In this document: positions 29,297 through 42,113 of the stretch, one piece after another
Layout: every line of letters begins with the position of its first letter
How positions within the stretch are numbered: the stretch's first letter is position 1
Source of the DNA: Patescibacteria group bacterium
Lineage (GTDB): Bacteria > Patescibacteriota > Patescibacteriia > GWA2-46-9
Reading direction: 5' to 3'
DNA: 64,000 nt
Assembly (NCBI GenBank): GCA_041660005.1
Contig: JBAZXG010000003.1
Span: 64,835 to 128,834, forward strand
Made by a program: the position numbers and the translations under genes
Notes under the pieces: model-generated
The model's input: only the letters and a program-made list of their open reading frames with translations
Databases searched by the model: none
Told to the model about the DNA's origin: nothing

Positions 29297-29370
29297 TGGG
29301 GGATCGTCTAATGGTAGGACAGCGGCCTTTGAAGCCGTGAATCATGGTTCGAATCCATGTCCCCCAGCCA
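29297..29370 (+). tRNA. tRNA-Gln (anticodon UUG), CCA encoded
   Basis: TGGGGGA-TC-GTCT-AATGGTA-GGAC-A-GCGGC-CTTTGAA-GCCGT-GAAT-CATGG-TTCGAAT-CCATG-TCCCCCA-G-CCA. The U1-A72 pair is typical of bacterial tRNA-Gln. Confidence 0.92.
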
Positions 29371-29789: not shown

Positions 29790-30515
29790 ATGTTATTCAC
29801 GAAAAAAGAAATTTTAGATGAAATAAGACGTACCGCAGAAGAAAACGGGGGTATACCCTTAGGCATGGACAGGTTCAAAAAAGAAACTGGGATAGGCCCA
29901 TTTGACGTAAGCAGATATTGGCCACGCTTTGGTGATGCGATAAGTGAAGCTGGATTGACGCGAAACGAACGATGGACACGTTATTCTGACGATCTTTTAA
30001 TAGAGAAGTCAATTGAAAAAATAAGGAAGTATGGTAGGTACCCAACCTTGAATGAATTATTTGTGGAATTTAATCAGGGTGATGATTTTCCGTTTCACAT
30101 ATTCAAAAAACGTTCTCAACCTTACATGGTAAAGAAAATACTTGAATACTGTCATAGTAGAAACGGTTATGAAGATGTCATTCAGGCTTGTGAACCTATT
30201 CTTAAAAAATTGAACAGTAAGGATGACCTATATAGTGATACCAAAAAGACCGAAAAAATTGGTGAGGTTTATCTCTTTAAATCCGGTAAATACTATAAGA
30301 TTGGAAAAACAAATGATACCGTGCGACGTGGAAAAGAACTTCGAATTCAACTGCCTGAAAATTTAAAGCTAATTCATTCAATTAAAACTGATGACACAAG
30401 TGGTATTGAAACATATTGGCACAAAAGGTTTGAGGGTAAGAGGATGAACGGTGAATGGTTTGATTTAAGTGCAGCAGATATTAAATCCTTTAAAAGCTGG
30501 AGGCGTATAGCTTAG
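29790..30515 (+). CDS. GIY-YIG superfamily (T5orf172/MUG113-type) protein with two N-terminal homing-endonuclease-associated helical repeats
   Basis: N-terminal repeats KKEILDEIRRTAEENGGIPL...RFGDAISEAGL and a second degenerate copy. The C-terminus reads GEVYLFKSGKYYKIGKTNDTVRRGKEL...YWHKRFEGKRMNGEWFDL. Confidence 0.65.
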   Translation: MLFTKKEILDEIRRTAEENGGIPLGMDRFKKETGIGPFDVSRYWPRFGDAISEAGLTRNERWTRYSDDLLIEKSIEKIRKYGRYPTLNELFVEFNQGDDFPFHIFKKRSQPYMVKKILEYCHSRNGYEDVIQACEPILKKLNSKDDLYSDTKKTEKIGEVYLFKSGKYYKIGKTNDTVRRGKELRIQLPENLKLIHSIKTDDTSGIETYWHKRFEGKRMNGEWFDLSAADIKSFKSWRRIA

Positions 30516-30594
30516 GTTCATTTATTATCTTAAGGTAGGTTTCGCATTCCGAAGAGTATTGGATTAATTGTGCGTGTTTTAATGAAATTGTTAT

Positions 30595-31140
30595 ATGGAT
30601 GAGAAAAACGAAGAAAGACTAGCTCCAGATGGTCTGCCGAAGCATTTTAAGATTGAGTGGAATGAGCCATTTTCTGTCTCCACTGGATCAACACCAGGAT
30701 CGTATTCTTCTGTTTCGATTCCAGTTGATTCCACAAAGTTGAAATCGGCAAAAATAAACACAGGTGGTAGTGGCGGTGTGATATTCGAAGATACGCCAGT
30801 ATATAAGTTTAAAACTACAAATTTAAAAATTAAAGACGGTAACTCTTGGGCCCATGTACGTACAAAAGTTGATTCAAGGGGAGATTATATTGATGTAATT
30901 TTTGGAAATTCAATAAACCCTCGACATTCACACATAGGATTTGAATTATCAGCTCCGCTTTTTTTAGAAATGCGAAACAAAGGCACTATTAATACAGAAT
31001 CTGCCGCTGAGGAAGGTGTAGGAGTGACCGCAGGTTCGCTTAGCTTAAAGGATACTCCTACAGGGAAATTAGTAAGACTCGACTTCGCATTAAATCTAAG
31101 TAGTAATGAAATAGAGATAACTGATTTTATTTTTATTTAG
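30595..31140 (+). CDS. Hypothetical protein (cassette gene B)
   Basis: 181-aa soluble, beta-rich ORF in the low-GC block. No family recognised. Confidence 0.45.
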   Translation: MDEKNEERLAPDGLPKHFKIEWNEPFSVSTGSTPGSYSSVSIPVDSTKLKSAKINTGGSGGVIFEDTPVYKFKTTNLKIKDGNSWAHVRTKVDSRGDYIDVIFGNSINPRHSHIGFELSAPLFLEMRNKGTINTESAAEEGVGVTAGSLSLKDTPTGKLVRLDFALNLSSNEIEITDFIFI

Positions 31141-31152
31141 TGTTTAAAGACA

Positions 31153-31629
31153 ATGACAAATATAGCTTGGAATTTAAGAAGCATCGTAATTTATGAAAAA
31201 ATCACTAACAAAGAATCCGGAAATTCAGGAGAACAAGAGATTGTGGATCTTGTACCGTGTCCGAATTGCGGTAAGAAGTTGATGAAACTTCCCCCGAACT
31301 ATCCTTTATATGACGTTCAATGCACGGGGTGCTCTTTTCGTGCCCAAGTAAAGACAAACCAGAGCAAACCAAAGTCCGTCGTTTTTGGTGCAGGATGGCA
31401 AATTATGAACAAGGTGTTGAAGTCTGGTTATATGACACCGCCCCTATTTCTTAATTTTAAGTGGCTAGAAAAAAGCATTCAAAGACAGGAAGTCCGTTTT
31501 TATCCGTTTGTACCTAAAAAGAATCTCTCCAACTACCGTCTTTCTAATACAGCCAGACGCGCCAACTACGAAATGTTTACTTATACAGGGATGGACAAAC
31601 TTCCATATTTTTCAGTATTTAAAAAATGA
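31153..31629 (+). CDS. Zinc-ribbon PD-(D/E)xK-like nuclease, DpnI/Dam-replacing-family-like catalytic domain only (cassette gene C)
   Basis: CPNCGKKL...YDVQCTGCSFRAQVKT...GAGWQIMNKVL...PPLFLNF...LSNTARRANY is colinear with my recollection of the DpnI N-terminal domain. There is no winged-helix C-terminal domain. Confidence 0.5.
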   Translation: MTNIAWNLRSIVIYEKITNKESGNSGEQEIVDLVPCPNCGKKLMKLPPNYPLYDVQCTGCSFRAQVKTNQSKPKSVVFGAGWQIMNKVLKSGYMTPPLFLNFKWLEKSIQRQEVRFYPFVPKKNLSNYRLSNTARRANYEMFTYTGMDKLPYFSVFKK

Positions 31630-31662
31630 TAAGGTGTTTAGAAATTATAATTAGTGAATAAT

Positions 31663-32535
31663 ATGGATCAGTCTTCCGTGTTGGCTTTAGCAAGTTTATC
31701 AAAAGATATAGCACAGCTTAATTTAGGATACTTAGGAATATCAGTAGCAATTCTTGGTGCGCTTGGTGGGGTTTTTGTTTATTTTAACTTAAATCCCTTG
31801 AAAGAAAACTTAAGCAAACAAGAAAAGAAAATCGAAGATTTAAAAGCCGAAGCACACAGCTTATTAGATGAATCAAAAGTTCAATCTGAGAAAACACTTG
31901 AAGATTTTGCAATAAGTCAGTTTGATAAAACGAGCCTACTTCTTAAACAGCAAAAAAATGAAATTGACTTAGAGACAAAAAATAAGATACAAGATTCTCA
32001 TAGTTTGTTATCGGATAAAATTGAAAATATTTCAGAAAGTAAAGACCTGAAACTTAAAGAAATTATTCTTTCGGAGTCTAATAATAATTTAGCTATCCTA
32101 GACAAAAATCTAACCCTGAAAATTAGTACGACCAAAGAGGATGTTCTTAAAGAAATTAAGTTAGTGAATGCTGGGATAAATGCAAAAATTAAGGAATTAA
32201 GTGAAAAAGTCATAGAATTGCAGGTTTATAAATACAGTAAAGAAGGACAGATGGGTGCAATAATTTATTCTATTGAGTTGCTTGAAAATGCGATAGAAGA
32301 TTATTTTAAAACGAAAAAAGAACTTGTTAATAAGTTGGAAAATTCATCTGACGACAAGACGTTTGGGTGGAAAGTTAATTATAGGTTAGAGGGTTTAATA
32401 AAGGAAATTGGTGATTCCAAATTGGAGGAGGATGAAGTCAAAAAAATTCTTATACAAATATCAAAAATTGAAAATGAAAGTGTTTTTAAGGTTTTAGCTG
32501 GAGAACTTAAGAAAAAAGTTTTGTATAAAAATTGA
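31663..32535 (+). CDS. Single-pass membrane protein with long K/E-rich coiled coil (cassette gene D)
   Basis: TM helix LGYLGISVAILGALGGVFVYF, then about 240 aa of heptad-like K/E/L-rich sequence. GTG at 31654 is an alternative start. Confidence 0.5.
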   Translation: MDQSSVLALASLSKDIAQLNLGYLGISVAILGALGGVFVYFNLNPLKENLSKQEKKIEDLKAEAHSLLDESKVQSEKTLEDFAISQFDKTSLLLKQQKNEIDLETKNKIQDSHSLLSDKIENISESKDLKLKEIILSESNNNLAILDKNLTLKISTTKEDVLKEIKLVNAGINAKIKELSEKVIELQVYKYSKEGQMGAIIYSIELLENAIEDYFKTKKELVNKLENSSDDKTFGWKVNYRLEGLIKEIGDSKLEEDEVKKILIQISKIENESVFKVLAGELKKKVLYKN

Positions 32536-32590
32536 AGTTCCATTTTATCTGCAAACATACTAACTTGTAATAGATAATTTACCAATAAAT

Positions 32591-33538
32591 ATGGAAAATA
32601 TTGCAGAAAAATTCTTCAATTCCTTTACTAAAATGGAAGATATCGAAAAATTAATTAGCGAAGGAGAAACCGAAGGCCAATATCTAGAATGTAAAAGCCC
32701 TCAGGGTCCATATTTTGACAAAGGATTGAAATCACAGCTAGCAAAAGAACTCTCTGCTTTCGCTAATGCAGGTGGTGGGGTTATTTTATTTGGTGTTTCT
32801 ACCACAAAACATAAGCATTCTGAAACAGATGTTTTGTCTCAGATTGAAGAAGTGGGAGCAGTTAAAAAATTTAGAAAAGAACTTGACGTGATCACAACAA
32901 CCTTAATTGAACCATCTATAATATCTTGTAGGTCAAAAGTTATTTTTAGAAATCCTTCTGATTCTAGGGGAGTAGTAGTAACTTTTGTTCCTCCAACTCC
33001 TGGTGATCCAATTAGAAGTAACCTTGACCGTGAGTTTTATATAAGAATTGGGGATGATTCAAGCAAAATGCCATATGAAACCGTAAAAAAAATGTTTGCT
33101 GGGACAGCAGGTCCAGAATTATCAGCGTTGTTTAATGACAGATTAGTAAAGTTAGAAGGTGATGGATCATGGAAAATTCCAATAATTTTAAGTAACGAAT
33201 CTAGTGCTGCAGCCAAAGACACAGAAGTTTCAGTCACGGTAATAAATGGTAGTGCCTGTGAAACTATTAGTGGAGAAATCTTCAAGGATCAGTCAAATGT
33301 AAACCCTGGGTCAAAAGTATTTATGACTGATATCGATAAGCCAATTTTTAGGGGAAAGAACGTTGTGGTCGGCTATATAGTTGTAAAAATGAAAAAAGCA
33401 AAGTTTTATAAAAGAAATTTAAATCTCAAAATAGATATATTTGCTAGTAATATGAGGGCTAAAACATATACGATAACAATAAAACTCGCAAAAAAGGGCT
33501 TTTCTGTAATGAAAACTAAGTCTGAATATTTATACTAG
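32591..33538 (+). CDS. AlbA_2/Schlafen-type putative nucleic-acid-binding domain protein with unknown C-terminal domain (cassette gene E)
   Basis: EGETEGQYLECKSPQ...LAKELSAFANAGGGVILFGVS matches the AlbA_2 (PF04326-like) pattern as I recall it. The C-terminal ~170 aa are unassigned. Confidence 0.55.
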   Translation: MENIAEKFFNSFTKMEDIEKLISEGETEGQYLECKSPQGPYFDKGLKSQLAKELSAFANAGGGVILFGVSTTKHKHSETDVLSQIEEVGAVKKFRKELDVITTTLIEPSIISCRSKVIFRNPSDSRGVVVTFVPPTPGDPIRSNLDREFYIRIGDDSSKMPYETVKKMFAGTAGPELSALFNDRLVKLEGDGSWKIPIILSNESSAAAKDTEVSVTVINGSACETISGEIFKDQSNVNPGSKVFMTDIDKPIFRGKNVVVGYIVVKMKKAKFYKRNLNLKIDIFASNMRAKTYTITIKLAKKGFSVMKTKSEYLY

Positions 33539-33689
33539 GATCATACTCGAGGCGCTTTCTTTTGCCGTAACAAAAGAGTCAGCAATAACATTGTAAAGTA
33601 ACGAGTCAAAAGGTTAGTGCTCGAAAACGGCAGCAAAAATTCCTCCCTCCACGGTTGGAACTTTCCCCCTCGCGAGATACAATTTAAAC

Positions 33690-33935
33690 ATGCCTAAAAC
33701 AGCCCCATCTTTCACACATAAAGTTCCAGCGGACTTCCGAAGGGCTATTGGCTCTACCCCTCGCGCGAAAGCGGTATGGGATGATATCACTCCAATAGCA
33801 CGCAATGAGTGGATTTGCTGGGTAACATCCGGCAAAAAAGCCGAGACGCGAAATATCCGGATCGCAAAAGCACTTTCAAAACTAAGTGGAGGAATGCGCA
33901 GACCTTGCTGTTGGGCCAGCTGTCCGCACCGTTGA
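33690..33935 (+). CDS. YdeI/OmpD-associated family protein (short form)
   Basis: VPADFRRAIGSTPRAKAVWDDITPIARNEWICWVTSGKKAETRNIRIAKALSKL...RRPCCWASCPH is a typical YdeI C-terminal domain. Its GC is normal, unlike its neighbours. Confidence 0.7.
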   Translation: MPKTAPSFTHKVPADFRRAIGSTPRAKAVWDDITPIARNEWICWVTSGKKAETRNIRIAKALSKLSGGMRRPCCWASCPHR

Positions 33936-33973
33936 GAAAAACAGGTAAGTTTTCTGCCATAGTGGTAACAAAT

Positions 33974-34495
33974 ATGCAGCCCTATAGATTTAGTCCAATA
34001 GAAAATAAAGAACAGTTGTTAGAAGCTATAGAATATACGCATTTTAAATGTTTTGAGTTATGCAAAAAGAACTTTGGCAGATATCTTCCCGTTGCCGGTA
34101 ATATCGGAATATTTTCTCATTATGATGATGAGTATGAGTTTCTTACAAAGTTAAGAGAAGAACTAACTGAAAAGTCCGATAATTGGAACCATAAGTATTA
34201 CCGTCTTCTCGAGCCTATAAGAATTGCCGCAAAGGGTGATGTGCCTGATACTGTATATACTTATCTCTATATTCGTAAACCAGATAAGCATAAGGAAGTT
34301 GGCGATGTTGATTTTGTCTTGGGTCTCAATGAATTTAGTGAATTAAAAGACTCTTTACATCACAGCAAGGAAATCAAAGGTATAGAAGTATTCGACCGCG
34401 TTGACCTTGATCTAATTAAACTGTTCGACTCCGATACTGATGTCCTTTCTTTTATCGGGACGAAGAACATGACCGAAAATATACGACCATTATGA
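33974..34495 (+). CDS. Hypothetical protein
   Basis: ATG at 33974 inside ORF 33809..34495; the upstream part overlaps ydeI in another frame. Low GC. No family recognised. Confidence 0.4.
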   Translation: MQPYRFSPIENKEQLLEAIEYTHFKCFELCKKNFGRYLPVAGNIGIFSHYDDEYEFLTKLREELTEKSDNWNHKYYRLLEPIRIAAKGDVPDTVYTYLYIRKPDKHKEVGDVDFVLGLNEFSELKDSLHHSKEIKGIEVFDRVDLDLIKLFDSDTDVLSFIGTKNMTENIRPL

Positions 34496-34749
34496 CCCCA
34501 TACAAACACACGCAAATTGGATATCTGATGCTGGTTGTTACGTTTTGTGTGCTGGTGCTCTTCGCATGGGCGCAAATTACGGTTCGGCTTGAGCCGCCCT
34601 CTGCCGACTCTGGAGCAAATTTTGCCATTACTGCGATAATGGTATTAGTTCTGTTTATTGTAACCGATTTCCACCGTCAAAATAAGACCGGAATCATGTC
34701 CACGGGGGCTATGGCCTATACCGTGCTTATCCTCTTATTCTTGTGTTAG
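34492..34749 (+). pseudogene. Truncated duplicate of the 5' part of gene 36310..36774
   Basis: The first 168 nt (34492-34659) are about 89% identical to 36310-36477 by hand alignment with 18 mismatches. The reading frame then diverges and stops after 85 codons. Confidence 0.6.
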
Positions 34750-34779
34750 TTCCAATTATAGTATATAATTTAAACCAAA

Positions 34780-34799
34780 GGTACCCATATTTGGGTACC
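34780..34799. promoter_or_regulatory. Inverted repeat (candidate AbiEi operator) upstream of abiEi
   Basis: GGTACCCA-TATT-TGGGTACC, 48 nt upstream of the ATG at 34847 and just downstream of a TATAGTATATAAT stretch. Confidence 0.45.
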
Positions 34800-34846
34800 A
34801 ATATCGTACAAATCATCAATTTACTTGTAGTGAGCAAAGTCGCACT

Positions 34847-35494
34847 ATGGAAAAAGACTACATTTTAGACTTAATGAGATCAAAGAAGACTGTCTTTACT
34901 TTTAAAGACCTTATTTTGCTTTGGGGAGAATCTGACGTCAATTTTGTTAAGAAGAAGATTCATCGCTATGTTAAAGCTGGCAAAATGAACGCTGTACGCA
35001 GAGGCATTTACTCCAAAGATAAAAATTACGATAAATACGAGTTAGCTACAAAAATATATACTCCTTCATACGTCAGCATGGAGACGGCTTTAGGCGCGGC
35101 CGGAATTACTTTTCAGCTGTACGGGCAGATTTTTATTGCGTCATATACCACCAAAGAAATTGAGTGTGATGGGCAGAAATATTCTTATAAGAAAATAAAG
35201 GATACCATTCTCACCAATCAGGCTGGTATAGAGTCAAGAGAAAATTACAGTATCGCTTCGCGCGAAAGAGCATTTTTGGATGTTATCTATCTCAATAAGG
35301 ATTATCATTTTGATAATCTCTCGGCTTTGAATTGGGAAAAAGTATACGAAATCTTACCCATTTATCGTGGTAATAAACGTATGGCTAAGATGGTGAAAAT
35401 GTACCATAAAGCATTTTCTGCCGACTTGTCCGCCGAAGCCGCAGCGCAGGCGGGAGGAGGTCCGCCTCTAGCAGAAAGAATTCCAACTAGATAA
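34847..35494 (+). CDS. AbiEi-family type IV toxin-antitoxin antitoxin
   Basis: The N-terminal wHTH-like segment (FTFKDLILLWGESDVNFVKKKIHRYVKAGKMNAVRRGIYS) and its position directly upstream of an AbiEii gene support the call. Confidence 0.75.
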   Translation: MEKDYILDLMRSKKTVFTFKDLILLWGESDVNFVKKKIHRYVKAGKMNAVRRGIYSKDKNYDKYELATKIYTPSYVSMETALGAAGITFQLYGQIFIASYTTKEIECDGQKYSYKKIKDTILTNQAGIESRENYSIASRERAFLDVIYLNKDYHFDNLSALNWEKVYEILPIYRGNKRMAKMVKMYHKAFSADLSAEAAAQAGGGPPLAERIPTR

Positions 35495-35501
35495 TAATCA
35501 T

Positions 35502-36206
35502 ATGGCTCTTGATACCGCAAAGCATAAAAATGTTCTCATAAAAATCCTCAAGGATATCTATACTGACGCAACCATTAGTCCGATCTTAGGATTTAAGGGT
35601 GGGACAGCTGCTACATTTTTCTATAACCTCGACCGCTTCTCGGTGGATTTGGATTTTGATTTACTTGATTCAGACAAAGAGAACTACGTGTTTGGTCGTG
35701 TTAAAGCAATTATTGAGAATTATGGCAAATTAAAAGAGTCACGAAAGAAAAGATTCAATCTTTTTTATATTCTTTCTTATGACGACAAAGATATTAACGC
35801 CCAAAACGTCAAGGTAGAAATTAATCGCCGTGAATTCGGTTCAAAATATTCGGTGGAATCATTTCTTGGTATCTCGATGCAGGTGATGGTGAAAGAAGAT
35901 ATGGTTGCACATAAACTTTGTGCTATGTACGAACGGATTGGTAAGACGAATCGCGACATTTTTGATGTTCAGTTTTTCCTTTCGCACGACTGGCCTGTTA
36001 ATAAAAAAATTGTTGAGAATCGTACAGGTGTCTCGTATGCAGAATTTTTGAAAAAGTGTATTGATGTAATGGAAAAATTCGATGACAGCAATGTACTTTC
36101 CGGTATGGGTGAATTACTCACTGAGAAACAGAAAGCATGGGCAAAAACAAAGCTTAAGTCAGAGGCGTTGTTTTTGCTTAGGTTAGCTCTGGAGAAGGAA
36201 AAGTAA
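35502..36206 (+). CDS. AbiEii/AbiGii-family nucleotidyltransferase toxin (DUF1814)
   Basis: LGFKGGTAATFFYNLDRFSVDLDFDLLD is the characteristic GGTA...R.S.D.D motif block; 234 aa. Confidence 0.85.
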   Translation: MALDTAKHKNVLIKILKDIYTDATISPILGFKGGTAATFFYNLDRFSVDLDFDLLDSDKENYVFGRVKAIIENYGKLKESRKKRFNLFYILSYDDKDINAQNVKVEINRREFGSKYSVESFLGISMQVMVKEDMVAHKLCAMYERIGKTNRDIFDVQFFLSHDWPVNKKIVENRTGVSYAEFLKKCIDVMEKFDDSNVLSGMGELLTEKQKAWAKTKLKSEALFLLRLALEKEK

Positions 36207-36309
36207 ACTTATATGCCAAATATAATCGCCGACAAAACCAAAAAACAGACTTACTATAAGTGCACTTCACTCACTATCCTCGGCAATAAGGTGATCACAG
36301 AATAGATTT

Positions 36310-36774
36310 ATGACTTCCTACAAACACACGCAAATTGGATATTTGATGCTGGTTGTCACGTTTTGTGTGCTGATGCTTTTCGCATGGGCTCAAATTACGG
36401 CCCGGCTTGAGCCACCCTCTGTCGACTCTGGAGCAAATTTTGCCGTTACGAGCATCATGGTATTAGTTCTGTTTATTCTTTCATCATTTGCGACGCTCAC
36501 AGTGTCGATTGATGAAAATTATCTTCGAGTTAAATTTGGCTATGGTATTTTCGCCAGGAAGTTTGAATTGAATCAGATAGCTTCAGTTAAAACAGTAAAG
36601 AATCACTGGTACTACGGATGGGGGATAAGGTTGTGGTTCTGGCCCAAAATGTGGATTTTTAATGTTTCCGGTTTTGATGCAGTCGAGCTCGTTATGAAAA
36701 ATGGAAAAATCTACCGCATAGGAACAGACGTTCCAGGAGAGCTTGAGACTGCGATCAAAGCGGTGTTAAAGTAA
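36310..36774 (+). CDS. Small membrane protein (two TM helices plus a soluble C-terminal domain), intact paralogue of 34492..34749
   Basis: 154-aa ORF beginning MTSYKHTQIGYLMLVVTFCVLMLFAWAQI, with a C-terminal beta-rich domain. No family recognised. Confidence 0.55.
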   Translation: MTSYKHTQIGYLMLVVTFCVLMLFAWAQITARLEPPSVDSGANFAVTSIMVLVLFILSSFATLTVSIDENYLRVKFGYGIFARKFELNQIASVKTVKNHWYYGWGIRLWFWPKMWIFNVSGFDAVELVMKNGKIYRIGTDVPGELETAIKAVLK

Positions 36775-36783
36775 TTTGGAATT

Positions 36784-37203
36784 GTGCCCACCAATAAACA
36801 AAAAATTCTAGAGTTCATCAAAGCACATCATATTGCCGTTGTTGCCACGACGGATACTGAAAAACCTGAAGCAGCAGTTGTTGAGTACGGCGAGACCGAT
36901 GAACTGGAACTCATTATTGATACCTTCATTTCTTCACGAAAGAGCAAAAATATTTTGCATAACCCAAACGTCGCTCTTGTCATCGGTTGGGACAATAACA
37001 TAACCCTTCAGTATGAAGGTGAGGCGACCGAACTAAAAGGTAGTGAGCTAGAAAAAAGCAAGGAGATATATTTTAAAAAGAACCCGCGTGCAAAAGAGTG
37101 GGACGGTCGTGAAGGAATAGTATATTTTAAAATCATTCCAAAATGGATCCGATATTCTGATTTGAATAAACACCCATGGGAAGTTTTTGAGATCAATCTA
37201 TAA
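36784..37203 (+). CDS. Pyridoxamine 5'-phosphate oxidase family (FMN-binding split barrel) protein
   Basis: IAVVATTDTEKPEAAVVEYG...NPNVALVIGWDNNITLQYEGEA...YFKIIPKWIRYSD fits the PNPOx-like pattern. GTG start. Confidence 0.65.
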   Translation: MPTNKQKILEFIKAHHIAVVATTDTEKPEAAVVEYGETDELELIIDTFISSRKSKNILHNPNVALVIGWDNNITLQYEGEATELKGSELEKSKEIYFKKNPRAKEWDGREGIVYFKIIPKWIRYSDLNKHPWEVFEINL

Positions 37204-37282
37204 ATGATTACTGGGTTATTAAACCTCTTTGATTTAGTACAATTTACAGGGTACACTCAGTTTCGATTGATAGGGTCAAAAT

Positions 37283-38215
37283 ATGATTGAAAAAAGAGGA
37301 CAATTTAATCCAGAGGTAAAGCTACCACCCGAAACTGAAAGCGACATGGCTTCAATTCGTTTGGAATTCTTTCGCCATGACGATAAAGAATCTGAAGCAG
37401 GTGACCCTTCGGTTCGTCTATCTCAACGTGGTCGGGTACATGCCACCGAAGCTGGCCTAACTAAAAATGCGCACGCGGAAGTCGCTTTAGCTTATGGCTC
37501 GTTAAAGGATAGAACAGCCGAAACAGCATTGCGACATGCGTTGGCGCGGCGAGAGGAAATTCAGCCAACGCACTCTTTGGAGGATATTCAGAGAATTGTT
37601 GATCAAGAATTAAATGTTGGGAAAAAAGGTAAAAAACTTATTAAAAACAGAGTATTACCGCAATTAAATTTGAATAATCGTGGTACGGCGCAATATCGTC
37701 AACAGTGGTTGCAGCACTACAAAGAAAGTAAGGATGCCTTGCGGTTTGTTTATCACGATAGTGATCGGTTAGCACAAGAGTTAAATGACAAAAAATCAAC
37801 TTCTTATTCCCGAGCAGCTGGTAATGTGGCTGAGTTAATTCAAAAGTATATTGGCATCCTGCCACGCTGGCAGGAAATTGTTAAACAGAATCCCGATAAG
37901 TACAAAAGATTCCGCGATGAGTTGCAGAGGTTTTTTTGTTCTCATCACGCCGTATTAGAGCCGTTCTTAATGAAAGTTATTGAACGGACCGAAGGGGAAG
38001 AGGGGGTTGAAAAATTTATTGAGTCGTTGCCAAACAAAAATGGGTTTGGTTTAAGTGAAGGTTATTCGGTTACCATAACAGGGCACGATGGTCAGCCCAC
38101 TGTTACTTTAAAGTACGGCGACAAGGAGTGGGTTATACCGACAGAAATGGTGAACGAAATTGTTCGAGAAAGAGATGAATTCAATCATCTGATAGATAAT
38201 AAATCTTCAGTATGA
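37283..38215 (+). CDS. Hypothetical protein, possible divergent histidine-phosphatase-superfamily member
   Basis: N-terminal IRLEFFRHDDKES...LSQRGRVHATEAG resembles the RHG...LT.G..QA motif block. The remaining ~200 aa are unassigned. Confidence 0.35.
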   Translation: MIEKRGQFNPEVKLPPETESDMASIRLEFFRHDDKESEAGDPSVRLSQRGRVHATEAGLTKNAHAEVALAYGSLKDRTAETALRHALARREEIQPTHSLEDIQRIVDQELNVGKKGKKLIKNRVLPQLNLNNRGTAQYRQQWLQHYKESKDALRFVYHDSDRLAQELNDKKSTSYSRAAGNVAELIQKYIGILPRWQEIVKQNPDKYKRFRDELQRFFCSHHAVLEPFLMKVIERTEGEEGVEKFIESLPNKNGFGLSEGYSVTITGHDGQPTVTLKYGDKEWVIPTEMVNEIVRERDEFNHLIDNKSSV

Positions 38216-38742
38216 AATTTATTTTTGTAAGGCACGGAGAAACGGATTGGAACAAAAAAGGTTTGTTGCAAGGTCATAATGACACAGAGTTAAACAAAAC
38301 GGGCATACAACAAGCGGTTCAGTTGTTGCCCACTCTGGAAAAATATCATTTTGACGTTATATACTCGTCATCCCTAAAACGTGCTTACGAAACAGCAAAA
38401 ATAATAAGTAATCACTTTAATGTGCCCATAATTATCAGCGATCACCTAAAAGAAAAGAATTTTGGCTCACTTGCGGGTAAAAGCTGGCAAGAAAACAGCG
38501 AAGCGACAGGAAAAGATTTAAAAACTATCGATCGGCGTCAGCAGTACGACTATAGTCCATATGGTGGCGAAACAGCAGAGGAAGTTAAGGCAAGAGTTAA
38601 AAAGTTTATTGAAGAGGTAAAAATAAGCGGTTACAAACAACCATTGGTTATTAGTCACGGAGGTATCATTAGAGTGTTGCGTCCTTATTCCGATGAGGTA
38701 CCGAAAGTTATGAATGCCTCGGTTCATCAATTTGATCTTTAG
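38212..38742 (+). CDS. Histidine phosphatase family protein (phosphoglycerate-mutase-like)
   Basis: FIFVRHGETDWNKKGLLQGHNDTELNKTGIQQA...SSSLKRAYETA...VISHGGIIR is canonical. The ATGA start overlaps the upstream stop. Confidence 0.85.
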   Translation: MKFIFVRHGETDWNKKGLLQGHNDTELNKTGIQQAVQLLPTLEKYHFDVIYSSSLKRAYETAKIISNHFNVPIIISDHLKEKNFGSLAGKSWQENSEATGKDLKTIDRRQQYDYSPYGGETAEEVKARVKKFIEEVKISGYKQPLVISHGGIIRVLRPYSDEVPKVMNASVHQFDL

Positions 38743-38751
38743 TGAATAATA

Positions 38752-39210
38752 ATGCGTACCATTAACCGAGACATCGTTTCTGTTTTGTTGCTTTCCAAAG
38801 AGGGTAAGTTACTTATTGGGCTGCAGTCTTTAAATGAATATAATGTTTACCCAGGATGTTGGGGTATTATCGGCGGAGGTGTCGACAACGGTGAAGACCA
38901 AAGAACTGCACTTAATCGCGAAGTATTAGAAGAGTCTGGTGTTGATATTCAAAAATACCATGCGGAGTTGATTGATGTAGCCGGTGGTGAAGCAGAAAAA
39001 ACTTTAAGAAACACGAATGAACGCGTTCTTGTAAAAATGAAGTTCCATGTTTACAGGGTCGTCATGGACGATAAAAACTCAAACGATATCACGGTAACGT
39101 TAAACGATGAGCACTCTGCATATCAGTGGCTATATTCATCTGAATTGAGTCAATTAAAACTTGCGCCTCCATCAGAAGCTTTATTTAAAAAACTTGGATA
39201 TTTGCAATAG
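38752..39210 (+). CDS. NUDIX hydrolase
   Basis: Nudix box GGGVDNGEDQRTALNREVLEESGV (G-x5-E-x7-REVxEExG). Confidence 0.85.
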   Translation: MRTINRDIVSVLLLSKEGKLLIGLQSLNEYNVYPGCWGIIGGGVDNGEDQRTALNREVLEESGVDIQKYHAELIDVAGGEAEKTLRNTNERVLVKMKFHVYRVVMDDKNSNDITVTLNDEHSAYQWLYSSELSQLKLAPPSEALFKKLGYLQ

Positions 39211-39221
39211 TGTAATTATCA

Positions 39222-39509
39222 ATGATCTCCCTACTCAAAAAACCGAGTGCCTGGATTCCAATAGTTATTCCGCTACTCTTTTTTGCCTATATAGTTATTG
39301 CAATTTCTTTTTTTGAAATAGTGCGAGAGAAAGACGAAGGAGTTGGTGCGCACCTTTTTCAGTTGTGGCTCCTCATTGAACCGTTTATGGTTGGATATTT
39401 TGCTATTCGTTGGTTGCCGCGTGCACCGAAACAAGCAGTTACGATTCTAGTCATTCAGGTTCTCGCTGCACTTTTGCCTATATCAACAGTTTTCGCTTTT
39501 AAGCTATAA
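39222..39509 (+). CDS. Small membrane protein, hypothetical
   Basis: 95-aa ORF with three hydrophobic helices. Confidence 0.4.
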   Translation: MISLLKKPSAWIPIVIPLLFFAYIVIAISFFEIVREKDEGVGAHLFQLWLLIEPFMVGYFAIRWLPRAPKQAVTILVIQVLAALLPISTVFAFKL

Positions 39510-39520
39510 AGAACGAAACT

Positions 39521-40348
39521 ATGAAAGTTCTGTTACTCGGAGCAAATAGTTATGTCGGTTCACGAGTTTATTTAGAACTAAAAAAGGATCATGAAGTAGT
39601 TGGCACATTTCACAACAAAAAACTTTTTACGAATCTCGTCTTTCTTGATGTTACCGATAGGCAAGCGGTAATGGATCTTATTATTAAAGAAAAACCGAAC
39701 GTAATCGTTCACTGTGCAAATCAGGCGAGTAATAGGTGGTGCGAAGAACATTTAGAAGATGCCGTTAAGATTAATCGGGAGGCAACAAAATTTATTGTAG
39801 AGGGGGCGAATATTGTTGACTCAAAAGTAATTTATGTTTCTTCCTTCGCGGCGATTTCTCCGACTAACTTGTATGGAATAATGAAAGAGGAGTCAGAACG
39901 GATGATTAAAACGGTTCGTTCGGGTTACGCAATAATCCAGCCGGGGGTAATAGTTGGTATTAGTCCAAAGATAAAAAAGGAAGATGGATTTTTTAGTTCT
40001 CTTATGGAAAATTTAAATGACAATAAGCCGGCCGAGTATGACAATATCAAAAAGTATCAACCAACCTATTTGGGTCATATTTGCGAAGTAATCAAGTTGA
40101 TTTTAGAAAGAGGTCTTTGGAATAAAACATTTCCCGTAGCATCACTAGGCGTTAAAACAAAGTATGAATTAGCAAAAGACATCTTATCTCCTTTTGGAAT
40201 AACAGTAGAAGAAGTTGAAGGTAGTCACACGATTACTAAGAAAAAGACACAAGGCCTAAAGGAACTAAACGAATCGAGTCTGCCGGTCTACACATATATG
40301 CAGACCATTGAGAAGGTTGTCGAAGAAATTAAAGCCAGTAACTGTTGA
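39521..40348 (+). CDS. NAD-dependent epimerase/dehydratase (extended SDR, RmlD-like)
   Basis: N-terminal Rossmann MKVLLLGANSYVGSRVY and a YxxxK-type region (NLYGIMKEESE). Confidence 0.65.
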   Translation: MKVLLLGANSYVGSRVYLELKKDHEVVGTFHNKKLFTNLVFLDVTDRQAVMDLIIKEKPNVIVHCANQASNRWCEEHLEDAVKINREATKFIVEGANIVDSKVIYVSSFAAISPTNLYGIMKEESERMIKTVRSGYAIIQPGVIVGISPKIKKEDGFFSSLMENLNDNKPAEYDNIKKYQPTYLGHICEVIKLILERGLWNKTFPVASLGVKTKYELAKDILSPFGITVEEVEGSHTITKKKTQGLKELNESSLPVYTYMQTIEKVVEEIKASNC

Positions 40349-40351
40349 ACT

Positions 40352-40963
40352 ATGAAAATCTTCCTCGCCACAACCAACGGTGGGAAAATTGAGCGGCTTA
40401 CGAAACTACTAAAACAGATCAACGTAGACATTGAAGTTTATACTCCGGCAGATTTACACATAGAAATTCCCGAAATTGTGGAAACTGGAAAATCTTTACT
40501 CGAGAATGCAAAGACTAAGGCCCGCGCATATTTTGGCAAAGTTCAAATGCCTATTCTTGCAAACGACACAGGTTTTTATGTAGAGGGGGAGGGGTTCATT
40601 GATGCGCCTAAACGGGAAGCGCTTGGAGAGGCCAGCGAGGGTACGTTGTCCTTAGAAGAGATCTCTAAAAAAATGGCAGATTTTTGGAAAGGTATAGCCA
40701 TTAAACACGGCGGCAAAGTAGACGCGTCATGGATTGAATCTTTTGTGGTTCTCTACCAGGACGGCACAATGAAAGAAGCTGAGTCCCGTAGAGATGTTGT
40801 TTTGACGAACCAAGAGTTTGGTACACCGCACGTACAAATGCCGGTACGTGCCCTCTATTACTCAAAAGTCACTAATAAACCCGCCATTCAACATACTAAA
40901 GAAGAGGAGATTCAAGAGATGAAGCCGATCATAGATGCTTTAGTCAATGTGTTAGAATATTGA
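40352..40963 (+). CDS. Non-canonical purine NTP pyrophosphatase (Ham1/RdgB/ITPase family)
   Basis: MKIFLATTNGGKIERL...ETGKSLLENAKTKA...DTGFYV is a Ham1-like pattern. Confidence 0.65.
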   Translation: MKIFLATTNGGKIERLTKLLKQINVDIEVYTPADLHIEIPEIVETGKSLLENAKTKARAYFGKVQMPILANDTGFYVEGEGFIDAPKREALGEASEGTLSLEEISKKMADFWKGIAIKHGGKVDASWIESFVVLYQDGTMKEAESRRDVVLTNQEFGTPHVQMPVRALYYSKVTNKPAIQHTKEEEIQEMKPIIDALVNVLEY

Positions 40964-41029
40964 TTTTGGAAGCGTAGGGATGGTATTTGGCGCTTGACAG
41001 TAAATAACCGTTGTATATACTATAGATAT

Positions 41030-41305
41030 ATGAAAACTATTATCAACGTGAAAGCAGATAGGGACACAAAAATTAAAGCGCAACGTTTAGCAAAAGAGCT
41101 TGGATTACCTCTAAGCGTTGTTATTAACCAGTATTTAAAGGACTTTATACAGCAGGGTAAAATTACATTTTCGCAACCCTTGATGCCAAATACCAGAACT
41201 CGAAAGATGCTTGATCGGGTATTGGCTGACATCAAGAAAGGTAAGAATGTATCTCAGAGCTTTAACAATGCAAAGGATTTGATTGCTGACTTAAGAAAGA
41301 AGTAA
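41030..41305 (+). CDS. RelB/DinJ-family type II antitoxin
   Basis: ATG at 41030 in ORF 40994..41305. MKTIINVKADRDTKIKAQRLAKELGLPLSVVINQYLKDF is a ribbon-helix-helix DinJ pattern. The stop overlaps the toxin start. Confidence 0.75.
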   Translation: MKTIINVKADRDTKIKAQRLAKELGLPLSVVINQYLKDFIQQGKITFSQPLMPNTRTRKMLDRVLADIKKGKNVSQSFNNAKDLIADLRKK

Positions 41306-41565
41306 TGTTGGTGCGTTATCACCGAGACTTTAAGAAGCAGTTTCAGAAATTAACTTTAAAGCAACAAAGCCAGTTTGATGAAAGGTTGGCCATTTTTAGC
41401 AATGATCCTTTTGCGTCGCAGTTGAATAATCATTCATTGCGGGGTGTTTACCAGGGCTGTCGCAGTATAAATATTTCCGGTGATCTACGAGTGATCTATG
41501 TTGCTGACAATGAAGGCGTTGCGTTACTTATAGCCATTGGAACGCATAGCCAGCTTTATGGGTAG
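41305..41565 (+). CDS. RelE/YafQ-family type II toxin (mRNA interferase)
   Basis: 86 aa with FKKQFQKL...HSLRGVYQGCRSINISGDLRVIY...IGTHSQLY, the typical RelE/YafQ pattern. Confidence 0.8.
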   Translation: MLVRYHRDFKKQFQKLTLKQQSQFDERLAIFSNDPFASQLNNHSLRGVYQGCRSINISGDLRVIYVADNEGVALLIAIGTHSQLYG

Positions 41566-41567
41566 CT

Positions 41568-42113
41568 ATGATTAAAGTTGTAACTGTTCATGGCAGGTTC
41601 CAGCCGCCGCTACATAAGAATCACTGGAACTATATTAAAGCAGCTTTTGGCGTTGCAGAAAAAGTTATTATTCTTATCACTAACCCCAACCTGTCTGAAA
41701 AAGCTGTACCTGAAGCTGAACACAGAAATAAAGCTGATAATAATCCGTTGTCGTACGATGAGAGAGTAAAAATCTTTAAATCTTTTTTTGACAACATTGG
41801 CATCGCAAAAAATAGGTATGAATTCAAACCTTTTGATATTACCGACGAGAAGGAGTGGAGGAAGTTAGACAAGGGCACTCCAAATATGGTTAACGTGTAT
41901 AGTGACTGGAGTAATTCGAAGCTAGAAAAATTTAAAACACATGATCTTAAGGTTATTCGACTAGATCTTCAGCCGTTGGACGGTGTATCTGGAACACGTA
42001 TTCGTGAAATAATCTGGCGAAATATTGACGCATCTCAGATGCGAAATGAGTTGTTAAAAGCAGGGTATATGGAAGAAGCAATTCCAGGTCTTTTTGAAGT
42101 ATTGGGTTATTAG
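41568..42113 (+). CDS. Cytidylyltransferase-fold nucleotidyltransferase, NMN adenylyltransferase-like
   Basis: VHGRFQPPLHKNH (variant of GRFQP.H.GH) and a C-terminal SGTRIRE (ISSTxxR-like) motif. Confidence 0.55.
   Translation: MIKVVTVHGRFQPPLHKNHWNYIKAAFGVAEKVIILITNPNLSEKAVPEAEHRNKADNNPLSYDERVKIFKSFFDNIGIAKNRYEFKPFDITDEKEWRKLDKGTPNMVNVYSDWSNSKLEKFKTHDLKVIRLDLQPLDGVSGTRIREIIWRNIDASQMRNELLKAGYMEEAIPGLFEVLGY

Follow-up and report, generated by a model that had tools for sequence, protein, structure and literature searches.

Among the known enzymes closest to the protein discussed here is DpnI of Streptococcus pneumoniae (Protein Data Bank (PDB) entries 4ESJ and 4KYW), a Type IIM restriction enzyme that, like the Neisseria Dam-replacing proteins, joins a catalytic domain (Pfam PF06044) to a winged-helix (wH) domain (PF17726) reading N6-methyladenine (m6A). 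In its catalytic domain E25, D53, E64 and K66 form the active site, and alanine mutants of D53, E64 and K66 are inactive; zinc is held by four Cys, one CxxC preceding D53 and the second lying in the hairpin that separates D53 from E64, and the loop of the cleft is disordered without DNA (Siwek et al. 2012, PMC3424567). Leu129, Arg135 and Trp138, inside that same domain, form a pocket for two m6A methyls, Arg135 also reading guanine; the W138Y mutant retains partial activity, and Tyr or His occurs naturally at the Trp138 position in some Neisseria homologues (Mierzejewska et al. 2014, PMC4117772). A type IIE-like effector function is ascribed to the wH domain (PMC11037411). Here we describe a short member of this family encoded by a Patescibacteria group bacterium, within a 64,000-nt stretch of DNA (the window; positions 64,835 to 128,834 of contig JBAZXG010000003.1, assembly GCA_041660005.1), and propose that it is probably a complete single-domain, m6A-dependent, solitary restriction nuclease that works without an obligate partner.

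That the gene product is a DpnI-family nuclease domain we regard as close to certain. Its match to PF06044 (DpnI, Dam-replacing family) spans profile positions 25-151 of 183 and scores 42.4 bits, where the gathering score is 26.7, with an E-value of 7.5e-11; the PADLOC model 'Type II methyl-directed restriction enzyme' is matched in its N-terminal half only (positions 32-142 of 256); and DpnI, to which the protein is ~20% identical, is the sole meaningful match in a PDB sequence search (E 0.006 for the single sequence, 7e-4 for the family profile). An initial AlphaFold model built on a shallow alignment, with a predicted local distance difference test score (pLDDT) of 62.9 and low confidence in the loop of residues 126-143, already had DpnI as its top structural match. 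It was replaced by a later model (pLDDT 90, from an input alignment that included canonical DpnI relatives), whose PD-(D/E)XK fold is nearest to the DpnI catalytic domain and then matches NhoI, ThaI and PvuII; ThaI and PvuII have been reported as structural neighbours of the DpnI catalytic domain too (PMC3424567). The structural matches further include Hjc resolvases and a homing endonuclease. NhoI belongs, with Eco15I, to the BisI family, whose members act on 5-methylcytosine in GCNGC and for which we detected no significant sequence similarity to the window protein. A Pfam scan of the 158-aa protein found no PF17726 and no other helix-turn-helix match.

The product is identical to NCBI MFA5954471.1, 'MAG: DpnI domain-containing protein [Patescibacteria group bacterium]' (MAG, metagenome-assembled genome), from a 154,447-bp contig, and the identical 158-aa protein is found on two independent assemblies. 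Most homologues start ~14 residues later; the window open reading frame (ORF) has no alternative start codon at that point, and NCBI likewise annotates 158 aa. In the JGI/IMG data the same sequence and its homologues are named 'DNA-directed RNA polymerase subunit RPC12/RpoP', a wrong name evidently suggested by the zinc ribbon; the NCBI name is the correct one. NCBI thus already gives the domain assignment, and fold, active site and methyl cleft are known from a characterised enzyme: we are dealing with a correctly annotated, uncharacterised domain family rather than with a new kind of system.

Alignments place DpnI E25, D53, E64, K66 and Asn48 at E27, D54, Q65, K67 and N49 of the window protein, and Arg126, Leu129, Arg135, Trp138 and Gly140 at N127, L130, R136, Y139 and M141 (DpnI residues are given by residue number; the PDB chain numbering is that number plus 3, chain N51 being Asn48 and D56/E67/K69 being D53/E64/K66). 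Both proteins share the E...D...(E/Q)xK layout with the zinc site interleaved in the same order: the first CxxC follows the helix Glu and precedes the catalytic Asp, and the second sits in the hairpin leading from the Asp to the (E/Q)xK, with D54 shortly before the second CxxC and Q65-V-K67 shortly after it. Among 198 unique members of the clade of short relatives, E27 is kept in 197 and D54, Q65 and K67 each in 198; the four Cys in 198, 198, 198 and 197; and, in the cleft, L130 in 195, R136 in 195 and Y139 in 194, with one further His. When 27 clade and 32 canonical (wH-bearing branch) proteins were aligned jointly, exactly nine columns were invariant: E27, the four Cys, D54, K67, L130 and R136. 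The 80 genome loci that we fetched had been found through peptide patterns spanning the Cys motifs, and ascertainment therefore accounts in part for the invariance of these motifs among them; the set from the exhaustive HMMER search is free of this bias. A sequence-only reading of this DNA had proposed a DpnI-like N-terminal catalytic domain without its winged-helix m6A reader. The ORF and every motif that it quoted are present, in the order and with the spacing that it gave (C36-P-N-C39-G, then exactly 17 residues, then C57-T-G-C60; GAGWQIMNKV at 79-88, PPLFLNF at 96-102, TARRA at 133-137), and both the assignment and the missing reader are borne out by the profile, PDB and fold comparisons. 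In the alignment with DpnI that it suggested for the catalytic D/E/K and the four Cys, D54, K67 and the Cys are identical, as is E27, and Glu64 is Gln65, a common natural variant within the family.

The short form is the normal architecture of this clade. A word-indexed search returned at least 1353 cluster representatives, nearly all of 142-148 aa, 73-91% identical to the query and carrying PF06044 alone; named sources among them are Campbellbacteria, Kaiserbacteria, Paceibacterota, Buchananbacteria, WS5 and a Nanoarchaeota bin. A pattern scan across 185,579 species genomes confirmed 158 relatives, a minimum figure, and the loci, 80 of which were fetched, come almost entirely from Patescibacteria or DPANN MAGs, that is, from the ultra-small symbionts of the bacterial Candidate Phyla Radiation (CPR) and the DPANN archaea. 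Depositor labels call for some care here: the locus labelled 'uncultured archaeon' (L054) carries bacterial-type LeuRS and FtsZ, which makes its label unreliable, and several loci labelled Gammaproteobacteria or Methanosarcinales may be mislabelled too. At least one context is truly archaeal (DPANN), that of L083 (Iainarchaeum), where a Hef nuclease scores above the equivalog cutoff. No relatives were found on IMG/VR viral contigs (pattern scan) or in INPHARED phage genomes (tblastn), and we reject a phage origin on that account.

The canonical branch differs in being almost uniformly 254-257 aa long, with PF06044 and PF17726 together and a few stand-alone exceptions of 160-181 aa. Those exceptions (e.g. 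P0251, P0253 and P0254, of 181 aa) likewise lack a wH domain and have QxK, but they span all 183 positions of the profile, have retained Trp at position 138 and are rare in their branch, whereas the clade of the window protein is uniformly short. Two further proteins, P0125 and P0246, have the same DpnI-type catalytic module with 'AQVK' fused to HARE-HTH in place of the DpnI_C winged helix, a C-terminal winged-helix-type module that is absent from the window protein. Judged by these architectures, the DpnI catalytic module is joined to differing readers or stands alone, and in this clade it always stands alone.

Standing alone need not mean lacking specificity. The isolated DpnI catalytic domain cuts Dam-methylated and not unmethylated DNA, being specific for both methylation and sequence, and the free wH domain added in trans inhibits rather than aids cleavage (Siwek et al. 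2012, PMC3424567). For the window protein we propose that E27, D54, Q65 and K67 would bind a divalent metal and hydrolyse DNA, with a four-Cys zinc site stabilising the PD-(D/E)XK fold; the 126-143 loop, with L130, R136 and Y139, would close over the target and read two closely spaced N6-methyls and the flanking G, as the DpnI catalytic domain does at Gm6ATC. The enzyme would thereby cleave foreign DNA that carries adenine methylation and leave the unmethylated DNA of its host intact, acting as a solitary restriction enzyme of Type IIM/IV, unaccompanied by a cognate methyltransferase. Retention of the Arg135, Leu129 and, mostly, Asn48 equivalents suggests a Gm6AT-type core for the putative target; since the Arg126 equivalent is variable and Gly140 has become Met, the outer specificity may differ from that of DpnI. 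In sum, DpnI has a winged-helix m6A reader, Glu64, Trp138 and Gly140 where the window protein has none, Gln, Tyr and Met, respectively, and the clade of the latter is restricted to CPR and DPANN and is internally far more conserved.

That conservation is under selection at the protein level. Clade proteins are 62-93% identical while their synonymous sites are saturated: relative to the closest relatives of the window gene (90-93% amino acid identity) the proportion of synonymous differences (pS) is 0.71-0.91 and that of nonsynonymous differences (pN) ~0.05, and pS exceeds 0.7 in 83% of 3655 pairs. The three low-divergence pairs that are cleanest give a nonsynonymous to synonymous rate ratio (omega) of 0.02-0.07, and pairs with pS of 0.45-0.55 give up to ~0.3 (about 0.2-0.3); these higher values are probably inflated, shared AT-rich codon bias deflating pS, and hence we rely on the three cleanest pairs. 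The GC content of the gene follows that of its locus or host (r = 0.77). Recent horizontal spread is ruled out as the source of the high identity by the saturated synonymous sites together with this tracking of host GC; the same two observations show the identity to reflect long-term purifying selection. The canonical branch is much less conserved, matches to P0251 being 32-44% identical, and we consider the unusually slow protein evolution of the short clade to be its most interesting feature.

No companion gene recurs beside the nuclease gene. BLAST found no homologue of any window neighbour in the flanks at the 85 other loci, no flanking family emerged in more than ~11 of 86 loci when the ORFs within 2.5 kb were clustered, and the 55 tightly coupled neighbours (gap <=30 nt) were heterogeneous in a bulk Pfam scan. 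Type I hsdR lies immediately upstream in five loci, and at least 15 of 82 non-redundant loci have hsdR or hsdM no further than 2.5 kb away; HNH, DUF262, DUF2726 and McrB-N genes stand beside others. Escherichia coli mrr also adjoins hsdR, a situation resembling the hsdR adjacency at several loci of the clade. Mrr-type Type IV enzymes are solitary, modification-dependent PD-(D/E)XK nucleases whose (D/E)XK element has Gln (PMC11037411), as has that of the window protein, which differs from them in its Pfam family, in having a zinc site and in lacking their N-terminal wH reader. A methylase was the tight upstream neighbour in just 1 of 27 cases, and no (D/N/S)PP(Y/F/W) N6-adenine methyltransferase motif was found in window ORFs of at least 150 aa, which is compatible with an unmethylated host; the observed/expected ratio of GATC, 0.88, is uninformative on avoidance of that site. 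Taken together, such a context fits a solitary defence gene moving among variable regions and not a subunit with an obligate partner. The features of the locus are collected in Table 1.

Table 1. Features of the DpnI-type gene and its surroundings (window coordinates, except where another locus is named)
Feature	Coordinates	Strand	Remarks
tRNA-Gln	29297-29370		
T5orf172/MUG113 protein	29790-30515		
Unannotated 181-aa ORF	30595-31140		12-nt gap to the DpnI-type gene
DpnI-type nuclease coding sequence	31153..31629	+	ATG start, 158 aa; Pfam PF06044 domain without partner domain
E27 codon	31231..31233	+	Equivalent to DpnI E25; kept in 197/198 clade members
Predicted zinc-binding element C36-x2-C39...C57-x2-C60	31258..31332	+	Zn-site topology as in DpnI (PMC3424567)
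D54 codon	31312-31314	+	Equivalent to DpnI D53; placed between the two CxxC pairs
Q65-V66-K67	31345..31353	+	Equivalent to DpnI E64-L65-K66; '(D/E)XK' element as QxK
Loop of residues 126-143, with L130, R136, Y139	31528..31581	+	Equivalent to DpnI m6A methyl-binding cleft Leu129/Arg135/Trp138
Unannotated 293-aa ORF	31654-32535		
Schlafen AlbA_2 protein	32591-33538		
HNH ORF, locus L006	5432-6130		4-nt overlap with the stop codon of the DpnI-type gene
HNH ORF, locus L007	5432-6130		4-nt overlap with the stop codon of the DpnI-type gene
HNH ORF, locus L008	5426-6124		4-nt overlap with the stop codon of the DpnI-type gene
HNH ORF, locus L011	5442-6146		9-nt gap after the DpnI-type gene

Several points weigh against a complete, m6A-dependent restriction nuclease. 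Glu64 is needed in DpnI, where E64A abolishes activity (PMC3424567), and we infer the activity of the Q form from natural variation only. By ending at ~profile position 151 of 183 the protein lacks also the last ~30 residues of the 182-residue DpnI catalytic domain, beyond the wH domain. Of the residues that contact bases in DpnI, two lack a fixed equivalent, that of Asn48 being N in 157 of the 198 clade members and that of Arg126 (residue 127) varying among K, N, M and H; Gly140, moreover, is replaced by Met, and the target sequence may hence differ from GATC. A role outside defence could be indicated by the conservation, much stronger than in the canonical branch, and by the placing of some loci in housekeeping surroundings, for instance between dnaJ and rpoB. 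The make-up of the alignment behind the better model and the ascertainment in the pattern-derived loci, both described above, count on the same side, as does the literature, in which we found no paper or functional study on the short CPR/DPANN clade and no biochemistry for any member.

Other explanations have to be set against this background. The sequence-only reading had taken the protein for a truncated nuclease whose specificity would be supplied in trans, possibly by neighbouring cassette genes. Reader loss with a specificity factor from adjacent cassette genes has in its favour the absent wH domain, the close spacing of five co-directional genes (29790-33538) with no predicted + strand terminator between them, and the finding that wH mutations impair DNA binding at the DpnI catalytic domain (Mierzejewska et al. 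2014, PMC4117772). We nevertheless hold it to be very improbable: no neighbour recurs at the 85 other loci, the coupled neighbours are heterogeneous and no attC-like repeats were found; the short form is universal in the clade, being its full-length, selected form rather than a truncation; and the isolated DpnI catalytic domain is already methylation-specific, the free wH domain being an inhibitor, while the cleft equivalents L130, R136 and Y139 are nearly invariant in the clade. The difference in length between 158 aa and the 254 aa of DpnI might also suggest a pseudogene or an assembly-truncated remnant of a full-length dpnI, a reading whose chance we put at practically nil in view of an intact ORF, a stop position kept in more than 1300 clusters, the strong purifying selection and the occurrence of the same protein on two independent assemblies. 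The Gln in place of the metal-binding Glu of ExK raises a different prospect, that of a catalytically dead DNA binder, e.g. a reader or regulator of methylated sites; Q65 has no negative charge, the E64A result would predict inactivity, and a housekeeping function in DNA binding would be in keeping with the very strong conservation. This too we judge improbable, because E27, D54 and K67 are invariant in the joint alignment and because Gln is natural at this position: among 107 full-length (>=235 aa) canonical wH-bearing relatives 67 have E and 40 (37%) have Q, proportions that may be biased by retrieval with the Q-bearing query P0251. In the exhaustive HMMER search 'AQVK/AQIK' occurs in nearly every full-length short relative, and the catalytic domain of Mrr has been described as 'PD-QXK' (PMC11037411). 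Truly degenerate relatives, furthermore, lose the D and the K as well. Five distant relatives of ~200-235 aa (P0201, P0216, P0235, P0241 and P0242) keep the CxxC...CxxC scaffold and have lost both the catalytic Asp and the QxK; they end in an FtsK-gamma winged helix (P0201 and P0242 by Pfam; P0216, P0235 and P0241 by sequence reading alone) and may be inactivated DNA-binding derivatives of the DpnI fold. Set beside such proteins, the retention of E27, D54, Q65 and K67 in the clade argues for selection for catalysis.

An active DpnI-fold nuclease might, finally, have another job, acting on unmethylated or differently modified DNA, in repair or recombination, or in the degradation of imported DNA for nucleotide salvage in auxotrophic symbionts. 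We take this to be unlikely, while giving it real weight: conservation is far above that of the canonical branch, some loci have housekeeping genes as neighbours, the equivalents of Arg126, Asn48 and Gly140 differ or vary, and Hjc resolvases and a homing endonuclease appear among the structural neighbours. Against it stand the conserved methyl-cleft equivalents L130, R136 and Y139, the count of 158 relatives in 185,579 species genomes, a lower bound which speaks for an accessory rather than a core gene, the variable contexts enriched in restriction-modification and defence genes, and a hydrophilic N-terminus in which, read by eye, the 158-aa protein shows no obvious export signal. The m6A-dependent restriction nuclease remains our preferred reading.

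In the window itself the gene lies in a low-GC block (~30-42 kb, 31-41% GC vs ~46% around it) just downstream of the tRNA-Gln gene, with the T5orf172/MUG113 and Schlafen AlbA_2 genes, several unannotated ORFs and, further on, an AbiEi/AbiEii pair in the same block, so that the ~30000-42000 region looks like a defence-rich variable region. No integrase and no att-like tRNA repeat or att duplication was found in the block, nor any integrase among the scanned neighbours, and a repeat search of 29-46 kb revealed no attC-like recurrent family of imperfect inverted repeats or of direct repeats between the ORFs; an integron or cassette context is rejected on these grounds. The only real repeat in 29-46 kb is a 170-nt direct repeat of 89% identity (34490-34659 and 36308-36477) that brackets AbiEi/AbiEii (34847-36206) and consists of the 5' part of a small membrane-protein gene, present as a cut-off copy (34492-34749) and an intact one (36310-36774); the AbiE module looks as if it had been inserted with duplication of the start of its target gene. 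Just downstream of the tRNA-Gln gene, the GC-rich segment 29437-29543 (+) gives a sub-threshold full-length match to the Rfam 'Actinomyces-1 RNA' (28.5 vs 39.1 bits, E 0.015) and folds at -62 kcal/mol, more stably than shuffled sequences (z -2.98), which makes it a candidate for an unannotated structured RNA. In the closest relatives of the nuclease gene a 232-234-aa ORF follows directly downstream, with a C-terminal HNH motif and an N-terminal domain of no assigned family (Table 1); absent from the window, it may encode a second nuclease that is co-transcribed with the DpnI-type gene in those relatives.

If our preferred reading is true, the DpnI catalytic module would have been repeatedly kept alone in nature, an in vivo confirmation of the autonomous specificity seen in vitro. 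An enzyme of ~143 residues would also be a potential compact reagent for the detection of adenine methylation. CPR and DPANN organisms, for which a low density of recognised defence systems has been reported, would own a methylation-dependent restriction gene that is widespread and only partly matched by typing tools. A further and rather improbable extension, offered as speculation, is that the clade is a self-contained ~16-kDa m6A-dependent enzyme, among the smallest modification-dependent restriction enzymes, whose unusually strong constraint across CPR and DPANN would come from the need of these episymbionts to distinguish DNA reaching them from a methylating host (phage propagated in that host, or host DNA taken up) from a genome of their own that is unmethylated; this, if true, would be a lifestyle-specific adaptation common to two domains of life.
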